In this document: one piece after another, positions 15,372 through 24,414 of the stretch
Layout of the letters: the number at the start of each line of letters is the position of its first letter
How positions within the stretch are numbered: position 1 is the stretch's first letter
Made by a program: the position numbers and the translations under genes
The notes under the pieces: generated by a model
Database searches by the model: none
Told to the model about the DNA's origin: nothing
What the model saw: the letters and a program-made list of their open reading frames with translations, nothing else
Origin: Candidatus Buchananbacteria bacterium
GTDB lineage: Bacteria; Patescibacteriota; Patescibacteriia; Buchananbacterales; UBA6539
Assembly: GCA_041664165.1 (NCBI GenBank)
Contig: JBAYLH010000003.1
Location: forward strand, 3,247-67,246
DNA length: 64,000 nucleotides
Reading direction: 5' to 3'

Positions 15372-15413
15372 TTAGCAATTAAAAAAACTAAATACACAAA
15401 AAAGTTCCAAAGC

Positions 15414-15487
15414 GGAGGCGTAGCTCAGTTGGTTAGAGCGTCTGCCTGTCACGCAGAAGGTCGTGGGTTCGAGCCCCATCGTCTCCG
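15414..15487 (+). tRNA. tRNA-Asp (anticodon GTC)
   Basis: The cloverleaf folds by hand: acceptor GGAGGCG/CGTCTCC, D-arm GCTC-AGTTGGTTA-GAGC, anticodon loop CTGTCAC, T-arm GTGGG-TTCGAGC-CCCAT, discriminator G. CCA is not encoded. Confidence 0.9.
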
Positions 15488-15512
15488 CTTTGGAACTTTT
15501 TTAATTCTTATA

Positions 15513-15754
15513 AGGGCGAAGGCTCAGTTGGTTAGAGCGTCTGCCTGCGCGCCCCGCTTCAATTCAAATAACTAAACTAATCTTTAAAAAATTTGCGAGC
15601 CACAGGCGACTCCGCGCCAGCTAAAAAAATCTTTCGCCAAAAGCACATCGCGAAATTGAGGCGGGGTCACGCAGACCCGCCCGAACAACGGTGATATATT
15701 TAAGTCGTTCAGTCGGGCGGGAGGTCGAGGGTTAGAATCCCATCGTCCCCGCCA
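15513..15754 (+). tRNA. second tRNA-Asp-like copy interrupted by two insertions (intron-containing tRNA or pseudogene)
   Basis: 15522-15547 is identical to positions 10-34 of the adjacent tRNA-Asp (through CTG of the anticodon loop). TCACGCAGA (the rest of the anticodon arm) reappears at 15668-15676, after a ~120-nt insert that ends in G. The variable loop, T-arm and acceptor 3' strand, with encoded CCA, are at 15721-15754. A further ~45-nt hairpin insert (CCCGCCCGAAC...GTTCAGTCGGGCGGG) lies between them. The 5' acceptor strand does not pair well with the 3' strand, and the T-stem has an A:A mismatch. Confidence 0.4.
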
Positions 15755-15891
15755 GATGTCCAAGTTTGAACCCAAATAAAATAAGGGTTTTATACGATTG
15801 AAAAGCCGGTATCCGAACAAGATGCCGGTTTTTTAAACGCTTATCAATAGTTAAGAAAGCTGGTATAATATAAGTAATATAAAATAAACCT

Positions 15892-17691
15892 ATGGATATT
15901 AAATTCAAGGAAAAAATAATCAAGCTTTTCAGAAATGACGCTCGTTTTTGGGATACGGAAAAAGAAGAGCTTAATCAAACTTTACTAAAAGATGCAGTAG
16001 ACAAGTTTGGCGAAAAAGTTATAGAAACTCTTTTGGCTGACTCAGAAGCCAAAAAACAATTTTTTGTAAAAGTTAAAGATGCTTATATTTTTAAACCAAA
16101 TGATTTTAAGTTTTTTCTTGATGAAAACAAACTTGATAATTCATATACTCAACTAGCTAATAAAATCGGACTTGCCACGGAAGAAATTTCCAGCGAAAAG
16201 GTGGTTTTGAATTGGCCGTTTAAGGATTGCGTGCTTGAAGGTGGAATGACCAAGGAAGATGCGATGGATGTTTACTTCAAATATGACACTAAAATCGGTG
16301 AATGGAAAGAAGAAAAAGCCAAAAGAAAAGAAATATTTTTTAATGAGGTATTGGCTCGCGACGAAATAGACAGACTAGAAGAACCGAAAACTTTCTATAA
16401 ATGGAAAAGATTTACAGAAAAGAATTATCAAAAAGGTGAAGATGTTAAAGAAATAAAAAGAGATAAAGACGGAAACATAAAAGAAAATCTTGTTATTAAA
16501 GGCAATAATTTACTCGCCTTGTATTCTCTAAAAGAACAATTTGAAGGAAAAATTAAATTAATTTATATTGACCCTCCTTATAATACTGGCAGCGATAGTT
16601 TTTCTTATAATGATAATTTTAACCATTCTTCTTGGTTAACATTTATGAAGAATAGGTTGCAAGTCGCAAGAAATTTACTTGCAGACGACGGGCTTATTTT
16701 TGTTCAGATAGGACACAATGAACAGGCTTATTTGAGAGTTTTAATGGATGAAGTTTTTAGCCGGGCCAGATTTGTTAATGAAATTACTTGGAAAAAATAT
16801 AGTGGTGTAAAAAATCAAGCAAGCAAAAAGCTTACAACTCAACAAGAAACGATATTCTTATACTCAAAAACTGAGAATTATTCAATTAACATGGTTTATA
16901 ATGAGTTATCTGAAAAATATGTTAAAGATGAATATAAATATATTGATGAAAATGGAAGAAGGTATGCGAAATTAAGAGGTAGAGGATATCAGGGTGGAGG
17001 CAAAGGAACAAAAATAAAATATTTAGATGAAAATTTAGGATCCCCAATAACAACTTTATGGGACGAAGATTTTTTGCAAATCAGCACATCATCTTCAGAA
17101 AAAATTGCAGATTTTGTCGGGCAAAAACCAGAGTCCTTGTTAAAGAGAATAATAGAATTAACAACTAATCCCGGAGATGTGGTTCTAGATTATCATGCCG
17201 GCACGGGAACAACTTGTGCGGTTGCCCATAAAATAGGACGTCAATGGATTGGTGTGGAACAATTGGATTATTCAGAAAATAATCCTGAGGAAAGAATGAG
17301 AGGTGTGATTGCTGGTGATAAAAACGGAATTTCCAAAGGGGTAAATTGGAAAGGTGGCGGTGATTTTATTTATATTCAACTCGCAAAATGGAACGAGGAG
17401 GCAAAAGAGAAAATTGCTGAAGTAAAGTCATATGACGAACTAACAAAACTTTTTGCCAATTTGTATGAAAAATATTTTCTTAACTACAACGTCAAGGCAA
17501 AAGATTTTAAAGAAAATGATATAAAAAGTGAGGAATTTAAAAAAATATCTTTGTCTGAGCAAAAAAAGATGGTCGCCCGCATGCTTGATCTCAATCAGAT
17601 GTATATAAACTTTAGCGAGAGGAAAGATAAAAAGTACAACCTTTTAAAAGATGATATTGCTTTGAGTGAGGAGTTTTATGATAAGAAATAG
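15892..17691 (+). CDS. mod: type III restriction-modification DNA methyltransferase (Mod), beta-class N6A/N4C MTase
   Basis: 599 aa. Motif IV IDPPYNTG precedes motif I (VLDYHAGTGTTCAVA), the circular-permuted order typical of type III Mod. It is translationally coupled to the downstream Res gene (stop/start 2 nt apart). Confidence 0.85.
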   Translation: MDIKFKEKIIKLFRNDARFWDTEKEELNQTLLKDAVDKFGEKVIETLLADSEAKKQFFVKVKDAYIFKPNDFKFFLDENKLDNSYTQLANKIGLATEEISSEKVVLNWPFKDCVLEGGMTKEDAMDVYFKYDTKIGEWKEEKAKRKEIFFNEVLARDEIDRLEEPKTFYKWKRFTEKNYQKGEDVKEIKRDKDGNIKENLVIKGNNLLALYSLKEQFEGKIKLIYIDPPYNTGSDSFSYNDNFNHSSWLTFMKNRLQVARNLLADDGLIFVQIGHNEQAYLRVLMDEVFSRARFVNEITWKKYSGVKNQASKKLTTQQETIFLYSKTENYSINMVYNELSEKYVKDEYKYIDENGRRYAKLRGRGYQGGGKGTKIKYLDENLGSPITTLWDEDFLQISTSSSEKIADFVGQKPESLLKRIIELTTNPGDVVLDYHAGTGTTCAVAHKIGRQWIGVEQLDYSENNPEERMRGVIAGDKNGISKGVNWKGGGDFIYIQLAKWNEEAKEKIAEVKSYDELTKLFANLYEKYFLNYNVKAKDFKENDIKSEEFKKISLSEQKKMVARMLDLNQMYINFSERKDKKYNLLKDDIALSEEFYDKK

Positions 17692-17693
17692 TT

Positions 17694-20462
17694 ATGCCTG
17701 AAAAATATCTTTACGAAGAATTAAAAGAAAAGGCTTTTGATTATGGTATCTCAAAATCGCAGATACCTGATTTTATTGTTGATAATTTGAAGTATCCTTT
17801 ATTTGCTTGGCAAAAAAATGCCATAGAAAATTTTTTAACTTATGAGGAAATTAGAAAAGAAGAAGGTGGTTTGAAGCCACTGCATTTAATGTTTAATATG
17901 GCTACGGGTACTGGAAAAACATTGGTTATGGCGGCCCTGATCTTGTATTTTTATAAAAAAGGGTATAAGAATTTTATATTTTTTGTAAATCAAAACAATA
18001 TTGTTGATAAAACAGAAAATAATTTTATTAACAAAAGCCATAGCAAATATCAATTTAAACAGAATATTGTCATAGATAATAAAACAGTGCAAATAAAAAA
18101 AGTTGATACTTTTTTATCGAAATCGGAAGATATTCAAATAAAGTTTACTTCTATTCACAAACTCCATAATGCCGTATATTTAGCAAAAGAAAACTCTGTT
18201 TTTTTGGAGGAGTTGCAACGACAAGATTTAATTATGTTGGGAGATGAAGCTCATCATTTTAATGCTACTACTAAGAAGAATAAACCCGTCCAGTTAAGCT
18301 TATCCGGTGAATTGTCGGAGAGCGCAAGTCAGGAAGAAATTGAAAAGAGTTGGGAAGATACAGCTATTAATAAAATTTTAAAAAGGGGCAATAATAATAA
18401 AAATAAGCAAAATAATAACGCCCTTTTGGAGTTTACGGCGACAATACCGAGAGATCAGAGTGTAGACGATAAATATAGAGATAAAATTATTTATAAGTTT
18501 ACTCTAGAAAGCTTTCTTGACGCTGGTTATACCAAAGAAATCAATCTGGTCTCTTCAACTCTTAATAAAAAAGAACGAATTTTGTCGGTTTTATTATTGA
18601 ATTGGTATCGGCATAGTATAGCAGTAAAAAATAACCTACCGAATTTTAAGCCGGTTATTTTGTTTAGAAGTAAAACAATTGAAGATTCTAGAAAAGATTT
18701 TGATGAATTTTTGGATATTGTAAAAAAGCTTTAAAAAGACGATTTTAATTTTTTAAACTCAATAGACAAAAATTTCTTTGAGGGTGGAAATTTGTTTGAT
18801 AAAGGGAAGAGTAAAATTTTGGCAATGACCAGATTTATCAAGAATGAAAATATTAAATTCCCTGAAATCATTAACTGGATAAAATATTCATTTGCGGATA
18901 GAAATTGTTTGATAACCAACTCAAAAGATAATAAGAAAAAAAATAAAGAAGAAACCGATGAAGATCAAGATAGATTGCTTAACAGCTTGGAAGATCAAGA
19001 TAATCATATACGAGCAATTTTTACTGTTAAAAGATTGACTGAAGGGTGGGATGTTTTAAACTTATTTGACATAGTTCGTCTTTATGAAGGCCGTGATGAG
19101 TGGCATGATAAAAAAACTGGCGAAAGGAATGCTGGGGATTCCACCATCTCAGAGATTCAGTTAATTGGTAGAGGCGTGCGATATTTCCCTTTTAAATACC
19201 AAGACAAAGAAGCAAATAAGAGAAAATTTGATAATGATTTAGACAATCCGATGCGAGTATTGGAAGAATTTGACTTTCATTGTTTTGACGATAATCGTGG
19301 ACACTTTATAGATGAGCTTAAGCGTGAATTGAAACGTAAGGGGTTTATAAAAGAAACTAAGGTTAGAAAAAAGTTTGAATTAAAAACAGATTTTAAGAAT
19401 TCTGAGTTTTATAAAACAGTTAAAATTTTTTTAAACCATAAAATTGAAAATGTTAACAAACGTAAAAACAGTCTCAAAGAAATAAGGAGTGGCTTGAATT
19501 TTGAATATAGGTTAAAAACTTTCTCAATTAAAGAAGAACAAGTTAAATTAGGGAACAAAGAAGATGCGACACTTTTGGAAACCATAGGTGATGAAATGAA
19601 AACTCTGACCGTGAAATTAAATAGTTTTGAAAAAAATATCGTATATAAAGCGCTGAATATACATGCGAAAAAAGATAACTCGCTATATCGTTTCGATCAT
19701 CTTGCTTCCGAGTTTGAAGTTGAAAGTATTGATGAATTATTCAAAGAGGACATTTTAGGTGATATAAAAATAAATCTGGTCACATCTTCCAGTGTAAAAA
19801 AATTAGATAATGTTAATCAAGGCGAAAAATTAGGTATCCTACTCGCTTTTTTTGAGAAGTTAGAGGCTGAATTAAAGACAGTAAGTAATCCATATCTCGG
19901 CACAGAATTTAATGGTGTAAAATTTTCTGAAATTTTTGGAGGTACAAAAGAAAAAGCCGTAGAAATAGATGAGGAGAGCGAAAGAATAGAAAAAGAGTTA
20001 AAAGAACAAGACTGGTATGTCCTTAGTGGTTTTAATGGTACAAGCGAAGAAAGGTGTTTAATTGATTTTTTGAAAGAAAAAATTGGTAATCTAAAATCAA
20101 AATACGAAGAAGTATATTTACTCAGAAATGAAGAGATATACAAAATTTATGATTTTGAAAGAGGACGCGGTTTTCAACCGGATTTCTTACTGTTTTTAAA
20201 ACGTAGTAAACAAAGATTATATTACCAAGTTTTCATTGAGCCAAAGGGTTCGCAGTTCGCTGATAGAAGTGGTATTTTTGTAGAAAGTAAAGAGGCATGG
20301 AAAGAAGATTTTTTGAAAGAAATTACTAGGAGATATTCTGAAAAAGAAGTACTAAAAATGGAAAATAATCAGTACAAACTCATTGGCTTACCACTGTTTA
20401 ATGAGAGAATAAAAACAGATTTTGACAATGAATTTAATAGGCAGGTTTTGGAAGCTATTTAA
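17694..20462 (+). pseudogene. res: type III restriction enzyme Res subunit, interrupted by one in-frame TAA (18732-18734)
   Basis: ORFs 17694..18734 and 18792..20462 are in the same frame and are separated only by TAA at 18732-18734, which I checked codon by codon. The N-terminal half has helicase motif I (NMATGTGKT) and the DEAH box (LGDEAHH). The C-terminal half has motif VI (LIGRGVRY) and a PD..EPK nuclease motif (QPDF...FIEPKG). Combined length is ~922 codons, typical for Res. Confidence 0.75.
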
Positions 20463-20610
20463 TCGAATAATCCACCTCATTTTTGCCTTTAATTGACTTT
20501 GGCTTGGGTGTCTCAAACCATTCAGGATGAACTTTGAAGATACGCCTTAATTCCTGTATACTATTATCAATATCCTTGAATTTGAGCCACTTTTTCGGTT
20601 CAAAGTTGCG

Positions 20611-20627
20611 GGACATCGTCTCCGCCA
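20611..20627 (+). repeat. degenerate direct repeat of the tRNA-Asp 3' end (possible island att-site remnant)
   Basis: GGTTCAAAG...GGGACATCGTCTCCGCCA matches the tRNA-Asp T-loop/acceptor 3' end (CATCGTCTCCGC, 12/12). It lies just past the R-M genes and is followed by a terminator hairpin CGCCTAACCGGCG-T7. Confidence 0.4.
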
Positions 20628-20677
20628 TTCAAAATAATCGCCTAACCGGCGATTTTTTGTTTTTTTTATTTGTCTAA

Positions 20678-21565
20678 CTATTCTTTATCAGTAAAGACCA
20701 CTAACCGGTTGGGATAATTTTTGGAAATTTGATTCCAAACTCCGTCACAGGTAATAATGTTCAGATGTGCTTTTCCATCATTTGAGTCAAATATGTCTGA
20801 AGCATCCGCATCCGAATCATACCTTCGACTTTCGCGCACCACAAAGGCTGTAATCACCCCTTTATCATCTTCAACATATAATTTATCACCTTGGCGTAAT
20901 TTATATAAATTATCAAACACTGATGCTCTCCCGTTTTCCCTTCCATCATAGTGTCCAGCGATGACGGCGCTGCCATTCTCCCCGGGGCGCGGCCCGAGTT
21001 CAAACCAAGCTACATTTTCCTGGCTTTTAGATATATACATTGCTCCCTCGGGAGTAAGACACACAGGTTCAATAACAGAATCAACACTAATCCCTGGAAT
21101 TTTAAGACGCACCGGCAATCCAAAAACTGCTTGTCCTGGTTTTAAGAAAGAGACTTCATTTCCAACAAGTGGCATTGAGCTAATATGAATTGAATTTTTG
21201 GGAATAAAATCAATAATAGCGTTGAGCCTTATCAAAGTTTTGGGTCCTACCCGGCCATAGCCGGTAGTTTCAGGCGTTCCGTTAAAAACGATTCTCTGCG
21301 CCGTTTGAAATTTCTGCATTGCCGATTGGGTTAGAGAATCAAAGCATCCGGTAATAAAACCTGAAGGATAGATATCGGCATTTGTCGCCAGATATGCCTG
21401 AAGCTCAACCACATCCGATCCGCTTGAACCGAAATCCAACTGGCTGGTTATTGTGGCACTGGCGTTCTGAATTCCAATAAACAAAACAAAAAATATTACT
21501 ACCATCATTACCCCAAAAAGAAGGCCTTTTTCCGACATACTTTGTAGATTGATTGTTTTGTTCAT
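20678..21565 (-). CDS. sortase-family transpeptidase fused to an N-terminal peptidoglycan-binding (PG_binding_1-like) domain
   Basis: 295 aa with an N-terminal TM anchor. The GSSGSDVVELQAYL...GCFDSLTQSAMQKFQ segment is PG-binding-like. The C-terminal domain carries a sortase catalytic-triad layout: His (VIAGHYDG), then ~67 residues to Cys (LNIITCDG), then 14 residues to Arg (NRLVVF). The LKIPGISVDSVIEPV strand is also sortase-like. Confidence 0.5.
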   Translation of the reverse strand: MNKTINLQSMSEKGLLFGVMMVVIFFVLFIGIQNASATITSQLDFGSSGSDVVELQAYLATNADIYPSGFITGCFDSLTQSAMQKFQTAQRIVFNGTPETTGYGRVGPKTLIRLNAIIDFIPKNSIHISSMPLVGNEVSFLKPGQAVFGLPVRLKIPGISVDSVIEPVCLTPEGAMYISKSQENVAWFELGPRPGENGSAVIAGHYDGRENGRASVFDNLYKLRQGDKLYVEDDKGVITAFVVRESRRYDSDADASDIFDSNDGKAHLNIITCDGVWNQISKNYPNRLVVFTDKE

Positions 21566-23238: not shown

Positions 23239-24414
23239 CTATTCTAAGTTGTTACCAAACAGCAAGCCGGCAGTGCCCAAATTATTAAACTCTTTAATGA
23301 TTTTATTCCAGCTGGAACCAAAATGCTTTGCCGCCGCCAGTTCATTGATGATCCAGTGAAGTTTGTGGCTGGCGTCGACGAAAAATACTTCGACGGAATT
23401 CTTACTTTTTACCAGCCAGTCGGTTTGGATATCGGAAATGGAGTAGCCGGTTATAAACTGCTGGCCAAAATCCGAAGCTGGAGGGGCTAAAGGAGCTGCC
23501 TGCTGAGCTAACACTGCGTTAGAACAATCTTGCTGGTTGTTGAATGTTTGCAACCCCAAATACATATATGTACCACAAAATTCTTTTTGTGATTGGCAGG
23601 TTGTATTTGTATTATCAAACCAATAAAGATTCGAACATGTTAGTTGTGGCGTTGGCGGCAAAACGGCAACAGTTGGCATAGCAACCGCGTTAGAATCCAG
23701 CGTCACTGCGGTCTGAGCCAAAGCTCTGCCGTTTAAGGTTGCACCAGTATCTAAGACAATTGCTGTTTGGTCCAATATATTTCCATTAAAGACTGACGTT
23801 GTTCCAAGTGTCGTCTGTCCGGCAACAACCCAGAAAATATTACTCGCCTGGGCGCCACCGGCCAAAATAACGTGCGCCGCGGAACTCACAATAAGATTTT
23901 GGGCTATCTGAAAAATCCAAATTTCATTGGCTCCGCCCGAAAGCGTGACATCGGTTGGGATGATCAAACCAGTACCCCATTTATAAACACCAGAAGCAAG
24001 CGTCAATCCGCCGATATTTCCGGCGCCCAATTCAGTCACGCTCGGCGCCCGTCCCATGGTATCGGTGTATGCGGTTTGCATATCAAGTACCGCCGTGGTT
24101 AAGTTGGCAGGCGTTCGATTAGCATAGTCAGACGCATAGACTTTTCCCGTAATTAAAGCTGATGTGGAAAAGGCACTTGCCGCCGGCAAAATTAACGCAA
24201 ATCCGGTGATGTAACTTGCGGCGGCCGGACTCAATCCAATATCTCCAGTAATTGAGGTGGATCCGGTAGTTGAGATTCCGGTTTTTGCTAAAATCACAAA
24301 ATTACCTGAATCGCCGAGATTTACTGTTGCTACGCTTGCAACACTTGACCCAGCTAAGCCAAGTGTAAACACGGTAACCAATATAGCAACCAAAACTTTG
24401 TCAAACATTTTCAT
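23239..24414 (-). CDS. secreted ice-binding-like protein (DUF3494 family) with extra C-terminal Cys-containing domain
   Basis: 391 aa. Signal peptide, then NLGDSGNFVILAKTGISTTGSTSITGDIGLSP...ANEIWIFQI...ASNIFWVVAG...FNGNIL...TLNGRALAQTAVTL, which matches the DUF3494/IBP-1 fold signature almost motif for motif. Confidence 0.8.
   Translation of the reverse strand: MKMFDKVLVAILVTVFTLGLAGSSVASVATVNLGDSGNFVILAKTGISTTGSTSITGDIGLSPAAASYITGFALILPAASAFSTSALITGKVYASDYANRTPANLTTAVLDMQTAYTDTMGRAPSVTELGAGNIGGLTLASGVYKWGTGLIIPTDVTLSGGANEIWIFQIAQNLIVSSAAHVILAGGAQASNIFWVVAGQTTLGTTSVFNGNILDQTAIVLDTGATLNGRALAQTAVTLDSNAVAMPTVAVLPPTPQLTCSNLYWFDNTNTTCQSQKEFCGTYMYLGLQTFNNQQDCSNAVLAQQAAPLAPPASDFGQQFITGYSISDIQTDWLVKSKNSVEVFFVDASHKLHWIINELAAAKHFGSSWNKIIKEFNNLGTAGLLFGNNLE

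Follow-up and report, generated by a model that had tools for sequence, protein, structure and literature searches.

[quoted passage not shown] Type III Mod proteins methylate DNA without Res. A second described group is formed by the modA-res systems of Haemophilus influenzae and Neisseria, where several strains carry inactivating res mutations while mod is still functional, a state that was read as restriction lost and methylation retained (Fox et al. 2007, PMC1976455). Orphan methyltransferases that arise through R-M decay are a third, with an intact methyltransferase beside a degraded restriction gene.

The locus described here lies in a 64,000-nucleotide stretch of DNA from a Candidatus Buchananbacteria bacterium (hereafter, the window) and resembles each of these to a different extent. 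Like EcoP15I and EcoP1I, it is predicted to encode a beta-class N6-adenine methyltransferase Mod and a Res in which an SF2 helicase core is followed by a C-terminal PD-ExK motif. Unlike those enzymes, its Res had no match to any PDB chain at the sequence level, either as a single query or as a 43-sequence orthologue profile, in searches that would have included EcoP15I, and none in P1-like phages by tblastn. The likeness to modA-res is closer: both have a mod-then-res operon in which res is cut short by a premature stop, with the nuclease lost and mod intact (PMC1976455), and in both the two ends of Mod are conserved but the recognition region between them has been exchanged. The lesions in modA-res are frameshifts or deletions, however, whereas the one in the window is a nonsense substitution, and modA has a phase-variable tetranucleotide repeat that is missing from the mod of the window. 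The hosts also differ, being host-adapted pathogens in one case and a free-living or episymbiotic member of the Patescibacteria, represented by a metagenome-assembled genome (MAG), in the other. Compared with other orphan methyltransferases, the locus stands at the very first step of decay, with one point mutation and all of the res sequence kept. The explanation that we consider very probable is that a res gene gained by horizontal transfer was recently inactivated by a nonsense mutation, leaving a methylation-only Mod. An inactivated res beside an orphan methyltransferase was one of the options listed in the first-pass annotation of this DNA, and it is supported by the single-ORF orthologues that carry a lysine at the site of the stop, by a lesion-free mod and by the presence of the stop in every near-identical assembly.

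The mod-res cassette and its setting

The locus is a two-gene Type III R-M cassette gained by horizontal transfer. Its GC content is 30-32%, where other parts of the window have roughly 37-52%; taken as a whole it has 31%, compared with roughly 42% for the genome. The cassette lies directly 3' of infC, rpmI, rplT and a tRNA-Asp gene, and on its other flank is a sortase gene on the opposite strand. Identical proteins in public records are named from MAGs of Patescibacteria or Candidatus Buchananbacteria.

The first gene, mod (15892..17691, + strand), encodes a Type III DNA methyltransferase of 599 aa and contains no internal stop or frameshift. The protein matches the Pfam families TypeIII_RM_meth (PF12564, 8.8e-13) and N6_N4_Mtase (PF01555, 3.7e-54), and it retains the two catalytic motifs, with DPPY at residues 227-230 and AGTGT at residues 436-440, in keeping with the earlier description of mod as intact. 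The mod stop codon TAG (17689-17691) is separated by 2 nt from the res ATG at 17694, and the same order of mod followed by res is found in two related cassettes (L002 and L007). With a Mod that has an N6-adenine methyltransferase domain and the Type III N-terminal domain, encoded directly 5' of res, the predicted system belongs by domains and operon structure to the Type III R-M systems, apparently at a distance from EcoP15I and EcoP1I.

Comparison with the L007 cassette, which is 84% identical to that of the window, showed that the Mod proteins share 80% identity over the N-terminal 300 residues and 73% over the C-terminal 200 residues. The central segment of the window Mod is unrelated to its counterpart in L007, and shorter. 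This apparent replacement of the central recognition region follows the pattern usually seen when mod alleles of Type III systems exchange recognition domains. A promoter-like site is located 22 nt 5' of the mod start (15841..15869, + strand) and consists of TTATCA and TG-TATAAT with a 17 nt spacer. This consensus match, which includes the TG of an extended -10 element, obtained the top score of the scan (10/12), and TGGTATAAT of the site is kept at an equal position in the L007 cassette. The site presumably serves as a promoter for mod.

At the other end of the cassette, a conserved putative ORF of 57 aa (20455..20628, - strand) is convergent with res and overlaps its 3' end by 8 nt. This ORF travels with the cassette. 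It was called in four of the contigs (L001-L004), and its amino acid identity is 88% in L002 and L007 and 72% in L008; it had no match in Pfam. The right edge of the low-GC cassette is marked by a two-way terminator-like hairpin (20636..20654), and homology between the window and L007 stops at 20625. A 12-nt repeat (CATCGTCTCCGC) at 15477-15488 and 20614-20625 resembles a tRNA-derived att duplication. That interpretation was set aside because the right copy also occurs in L007, as CATCGTCCCCGC, where it lies beside a different tRNA, and because it is part of the conserved 57-aa ORF, at the very start of its coding sequence. Pieces of tRNA-like sequence between 15513 and 15755 were not called by ARAGORN (introns allowed) or by Rfam.

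The res reading frame and the position of the stop

A single premature stop codon divides res. Translation of 17694-20462 (+ strand) in one frame gives 923 codons, of which 922 are sense codons and the last is the terminal TAA if the internal stop is left out of account. The sole internal stop of this frame is TAA at 18732..18734 (+ strand), codon 347, in the local sequence GTA AAA AAG CTT TAA AAA GAC GAT. A restricting R-M system needs an uninterrupted res frame, and in this case the frame is broken. The first-pass annotation had described one frame of ~922 codons with one in-frame TAA, and same-frame translation agrees with it. It had also divided the gene into the two ORFs of the ORF list, 17694..18734 (346 aa, ATG) and 18792..20462 (556 aa, TTG). 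These are indeed in the same frame on the + strand, but position 18792 does not hold as a boundary, as it is merely the first TTG after the stop and homology already resumes at 18735.

The 5' part of res (17694..18734, + strand) comprises 346 codons and the premature TAA, and would encode helicase domain 1 together with one strand and one helix, the first of each, from domain 2. The 3' part (18735..20462, + strand) comprises 575 codons and the natural TAA, and would encode what remains of domain 2, including motif VI, and the putative C-terminal PD-ExK nuclease. An open stretch of 575 codons in DNA of 30% GC cannot be due to chance. Both halves match full-length orthologues without gaps, and the 5' part aligns from residue 1.

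The SF2 helicase/ATPase core is present in Res and is split by the stop. Motif I (GTGKT), motif II (DEAH) and motif III (TAT) are all encoded 5' of the stop, and motif VI (QxxGRGxR, here QLIGRGVR) and the PD...EPK motif 3' of it. The motif residues are invariant in a 43-sequence orthologue alignment, and this alignment and the translation bear out the earlier placement of motifs I and II before the TAA and of motif VI and PD-ExK after it. The 5' part matches the Pfam family ResIII (PF04851, 2.5e-25). The 3' part had no match in local copies of Pfam and NCBIfam, and the local Pfam copy contains no model for the nuclease region. Precomputed Pfam families for the 3' region are PF27159 (HI_1054_N) and PF27365 (HI_1054), the second of which is also reported for the orthologues. 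The nuclease motif reads ...FQPDFLLF...(x18)...EPKG, and its residues P829, D830, E849 and K851 are invariant in the 43 orthologues, so that Res has, as judged by this motif, a putative C-terminal PD-(D/E)xK endonuclease. A chromosomal, unannotated homologue in N. gonorrhoeae shares 43% identity with Res over 96% of its length. Together with the HI_1054-named domains, this places the predicted protein in the clade typified by the Haemophilus/Neisseria modA-res systems.

The position of the break was also considered in a structural model. An AlphaFold2 prediction was made on the closest orthologue (P0001) with 43 aligned orthologues and was of modest quality (mean pLDDT 62, pTM 0.38). Around the stop it contains a strand at residues 321-326 (KPVILF), a helix at 329-344, residue 347 in a turn and a further helix at 348-360, and this block has a pLDDT of 64-84. 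According to the model, the break follows the first strand and helix of helicase domain 2 and thus falls within this domain, where there is no domain boundary. A Foldseek search of the PDB with the same model (pLDDT 62) returned generic SF2 helicases only, with E above 0.005.

Origin of the stop and competing explanations

Among the sequences compared, the stop codon is specific to the lineage of the window. A search with the joined Res protein gave thousands of matches, and the best 120 were examined. All but one (119) are single proteins of about 890-1150 aa, and the lone fragment (P0008) is a 556-aa 3' piece from the same lineage as the window. In a MAFFT alignment of the query and these 120 sequences, the column of the stop contains K (80 sequences), Q (11), E (10), T (6), and R, S or N (4 each), with P0008 gapped. 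No stop or gene boundary occurs at the codon-347 column among the 119 orthologues. The first-pass annotation had proposed to see whether orthologues have a sense codon here or are two genuine genes. The site is occupied by a sense codon, most commonly for lysine and AAA in the closest orthologue, and two genuine genes were not seen, as the best 120 are single ORFs with the exception of P0008.

The closest orthologue (P0001, 922 aa, JGI 3300044603) has 89% amino acid identity to the window Res, with no gap over 922 codons, and reads AAG CTC AAA AAA GAT where the window reads AAG CTT TAA AAA GAC. The L007 contig also has AAA at this position and is thus a second contig with the allele of P0001. 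Given lysine and AAA at the site in both, and lysine in 80/120 orthologues, the stop is a derived A-to-T transversion of a lysine codon. To find near-identical strains that carry the sense codon, a degenerate DNA pattern covering the site was run against two collections; it recovered only L007 from the JGI metagenomes and had no match in the GTDB representatives. Across these two collections, no revertant or ancestral strain of the window lineage was found.

Relative to P0001, the two parts of res have nearly equal dN/dS values (5' part, 0.036; 3' part, 0.040), which shows both halves to have been under apparent constraint over most of the divergence from this orthologue. As to the interval since the mutation, it has not been long enough for a second lesion to arise. 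Such low values would mostly reflect evolution that predates the mutation, and they fit a very recent mutation and, equally, a 3' part that is still in use. Since no secondary lesions are present and both halves are constrained, we infer that the nonsense mutation is recent.

If the 3' part were still in use, the 346-aa N-fragment and a re-initiated C-fragment could together form an active or weakened translocase-nuclease, a reading that we regard as unlikely. Candidate restart codons are TTG at 18792, TTG at 18819 and ATG at 18825. A GAGG located 8 nt 5' of TTG 18792, on the same mRNA, could allow re-initiation, Prodigal-type callers place a 556-aa gene at this TTG, and the 3' part combines its low dN/dS with the lack of any further lesion. 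However, GAGGGTGGA simply encodes the conserved E-G-G, which orthologues have as FFEGG or FFEGK, and was therefore not selected as a ribosome-binding site, and a Shine-Dalgarno-like motif precedes just 6/37 genes of the window. Three gene callers or annotation pipelines chose three different starts. The break lies within helicase domain 2, and any restart loses at least 19 residues. No orthologue is arranged as two genes, nor is a two-ORF Res conserved across species representatives, since res is one ORF in 77/79 of those with the standard code and the other two have their breaks elsewhere. The promoter scan found no strong promoter-like site ahead of the 3' part, which is probably untranslated or poorly translated.

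A related and improbable idea is that the nonsense allele has been retained for some benefit, by way of a weakened two-piece Res started at TTG 18792 or a trickle of full-length Res through rare readthrough. Its appeal comes from the lesion-free 3' part and from the fixation of the allele across several co-occurring haplotypes. If true, it would mean that a tiny genome of the Patescibacteria could accommodate a newly acquired Type III system and escape lethal restriction of its own DNA.

A sequencing or assembly error, which would make the true codon AAA and res intact, is very improbable. Such an error might be expected at a T/A homopolymer junction (CTTTAAAAAG) in a short-read metagenome assembly, and the source is a k141 MEGAHIT contig. 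The exact 346-aa N-fragment is, however, on record in NCBI (two MAGs), JGI/IMG, Logan and ENA. Five near-identical contigs were retrieved, including one with the same neighbouring genes in addition to those from ENA, JGI and Logan (two). The identical TAA context is present in L001/L004 (ENA ERZ27249449, a MEGAHIT contig of 257 kb), L003 (JGI 3300037810, also an NCBI MAG), L005 (SRR6484324) and L006 (SRR18595301). Among these contigs and the window, two sites are polymorphic, 16010 (G/A, Gly/Asp in Mod) and 20554 (C/T), giving at least three haplotypes with the window counted, all with TAA. At least two sequencing runs underlie the contigs, and it may be that the ENA and JGI assemblies were built from the very runs used by Logan. 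One would not expect a substitution error to repeat across all five contigs, from the MEGAHIT/ENA, JGI and Logan pipelines and on differing haplotypes, and the error raised in the first-pass annotation is thereby effectively excluded.

The Logan contigs also give an indication of strain diversity. For each of the two Logan runs, the contig with the cassette stops at 20536 and the next begins at 20575, bracketing the polymorphism at 20554, and we read these breaks as an unresolved SNP bubble, i.e., as more than one strain per sample. The same contigs are unbroken through 18732, which argues against a common sense allele in both samples. Judged from the contigs, the two samples seem to contain no sense allele at high frequency, and a minority allele is possible.

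Programmed readthrough or another form of recoding, also put forward earlier, would yield some full-length Res, for example for low-level, self-limiting restriction. That there is just one stop in an otherwise clean 922-codon frame is what such a mechanism would require, yet we find it highly unlikely in view of the following. The stop is absent from this column in the 119 orthologues. TAA is a normal terminator in the window, where 41 confident ORFs end in TAA (27), TAG (11) or TGA (3), and res itself ends in TAA where the orthologues end. The premature stop is in the context TAAA, which is the commonest four-base terminator in the window. The sole tRNA of the window is the tRNA-Asp, with no suppressor tRNA seen there, and other window genes are not split by an in-frame stop. 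The remaining long same-frame ORF pairs consist of two complete response regulators, adjacent unrelated genes of unknown function and an antisense artefact. With 27/41 window genes ending in TAA and no stop in this column in 119 orthologues, there is no sign of genome-wide TAA reassignment or of a conserved stop.

Ribosomal frameshifting was rejected as well. A -1 slip on A-AAA-AAG would continue as GCT TTA AAA AGA CGA TTT TAA, and a +1 slip on CTT-T as AAA AAG ACG ATT TTA ATT TTT TAA, each reaching a new stop within 7-8 codons, and A-AAA-AAG is also present in the intact orthologue P0001.

A phase-variable switch, in which res or the whole system would frequently toggle ON/OFF like the phasevarions known from host-adapted pathogens, is extremely unlikely, and the corresponding label of the first-pass annotation is not supported. 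Phase variation among R-M systems is classically a property of Type III, and phasevarions are accompanied by inactivation of res (PMC1976455), but this lesion is a transversion and not a change in repeat number, and all assemblies are in the same state. Tandem Repeats Finder (minimum score 30, 15400-20700) detected no long simple-sequence tract either in mod or around the stop; its output consisted of two 2-copy repeats and, within res, an imperfect (AAT)~10 that preserves the frame. With no such repeat in mod, the locus is not a phasevarion in the usual sense.

Predicted methylation without restriction and the frequency of such lesions

Recent nonsense inactivation of res thus remains the preferred explanation. 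One A-to-T transversion in the window lineage changed Lys codon 347 of res from AAA to TAA, and translation of res would now stop after 346 residues. The truncated Res would retain helicase domain 1 but, of domain 2, no more than the initial strand and helix. As it would be without motif VI and PD-ExK, it should be able neither to translocate on DNA nor to cut it, and restriction activity has presumably been lost. Mod is probably still active, and because it does not depend on Res for methylation, the locus should act as a methylation-only orphan methyltransferase.

The public names "DEAD/DEAH box helicase family protein" and "hypothetical protein" accordingly denote two pieces of a single res pseudogene. 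In counts of Patescibacteria defence repertoires, the locus is to be scored as methyltransferase-only. Loss of res with retention of mod is a well documented and common decay route, and the case opens no new biological question. It does illustrate that a comparison of independent public assemblies of one population can settle a suspected assembly error without access to the reads.

Comparable lesions were sought by scanning GTDB species representatives with the orthologue alignment, which gave 80 loci that span many phyla, among them Patescibacteria, Bacteroidota, Atribacterota and Proteobacteria, as well as a few archaeal MAGs. After re-alignment, three of the 80 loci contained in-frame stops (L047, L072 and L084). 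The first of these has 13 TGA codons at conserved glycine positions and was rejected as a damaged res, as TGA at glycine positions corresponds to genetic code 25. Of the other two, L072 has one TAA at a conserved lysine (YYK-K-GY) and L084 has one TGA at 835, between the PD and ExK motifs. Independent single nonsense lesions in this Res family are therefore found in 2/79 standard-code species representatives, or about 2-3%. Two plasmid matches to Res were also in separate pieces.

Cassette borders and adjacent tRNA-like sequence

The low-GC Type III cassette, consisting of mod (15892..17691) and res (17694-20462, with an internal TAA at 18732-18734), suggests from its borders a small mobile unit that targets tRNA 3′ ends. 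Window positions 15755-20625 were compared to positions 114-5268 of L007, a contig carrying an 84% identical cassette with AAA in place of the res TAA. Homology detected by blastn covered only 17173-20625 of the window, stopping at window position 20625 and L007 position 5268. Visual inspection showed that the sequence GATGTCCAAGTT..., located directly 3′ of the CCA of the tRNA or tRNA fragment, was also common to both. The preceding tRNA element differed, being tRNA-Ser(gct) in L007 versus a tRNA-like 3′ half in the window. No integrase was found within the cassette.

Broken tRNA-like pieces (15513-15755) are located between tRNA-Asp and the cassette. The first (15522-15547) exactly repeats 26 nt of the tRNA-Asp D-arm/anticodon stem (15423-15448), and is followed by an unrelated spacer of ~164 nt and then by a T-arm/acceptor 3′ half with CCA at its end (15712-15754). 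These pieces were not called by ARAGORN, with introns allowed, or by Rfam, and may be the scar of an integration event at a tRNA gene. The minus strand also encodes, a few kb away from the cassette, a 391-amino acid protein (23239-24414) with a precomputed assignment to the ice-binding family PF11999 (Ice_binding).

Polymorphism and a conserved small ORF

A non-synonymous polymorphism in Mod (16010) distinguishes near-identical assemblies, with residue 40 being Gly (GGT) in the window and Asp in both the JGI contig and the Logan contig SRR18595301. Asp40 is also found in the more distant Mod of L007, thus indicating that Gly40 is the derived state. A conserved 57-amino acid ORF (20455-20628, minus strand) faces res in a convergent orientation, sharing the final 8 nt of that gene. 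The ORF has 88% identity in both L002 and L007, compared with 72% in L008, and accompanies this clade of cassettes. It has no Pfam family, and a C/T polymorphism at 20554 is synonymous within it.

Nonsense codons and domain architecture in Res orthologues

Three Res orthologues from GTDB species representatives contained in-frame stops. In a Patescibacteria MAG (L047, 3001-5727), 13 in-frame TGA codons coincided with conserved Gly residues, with LGDEAH, for instance, appearing as L*DEAH, which indicates that this cassette family has also settled in a genetic code 25 lineage. Single nonsense codons were found in a Thermoplasmatales MAG (L072, 3001-5733; TAA at codon 86, a conserved Lys) and in a complete Candidatus Peribacteria genome (L084, 3001-5727; TGA at codon 835, flanked by the PD and ExK motifs). 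These two are independent events in the same Res family.

Orthologues with 50-59% identity were located in MAGs with archaeal labels (L032, L072 and L076; Thermoplasmata, Thermoplasmatales and Woesearchaeota), which could reflect either cross-domain transfer or binning contamination. Among the best 120 matches to the joined Res, some orthologues of ~1090-1150 amino acids (P0013, P0014, P0018-P0020, P0029, P0082, P0093, and P0103) contain an extra fused PF00717 (peptidase S24/LexA-like) domain, which is unusual in a restriction subunit.
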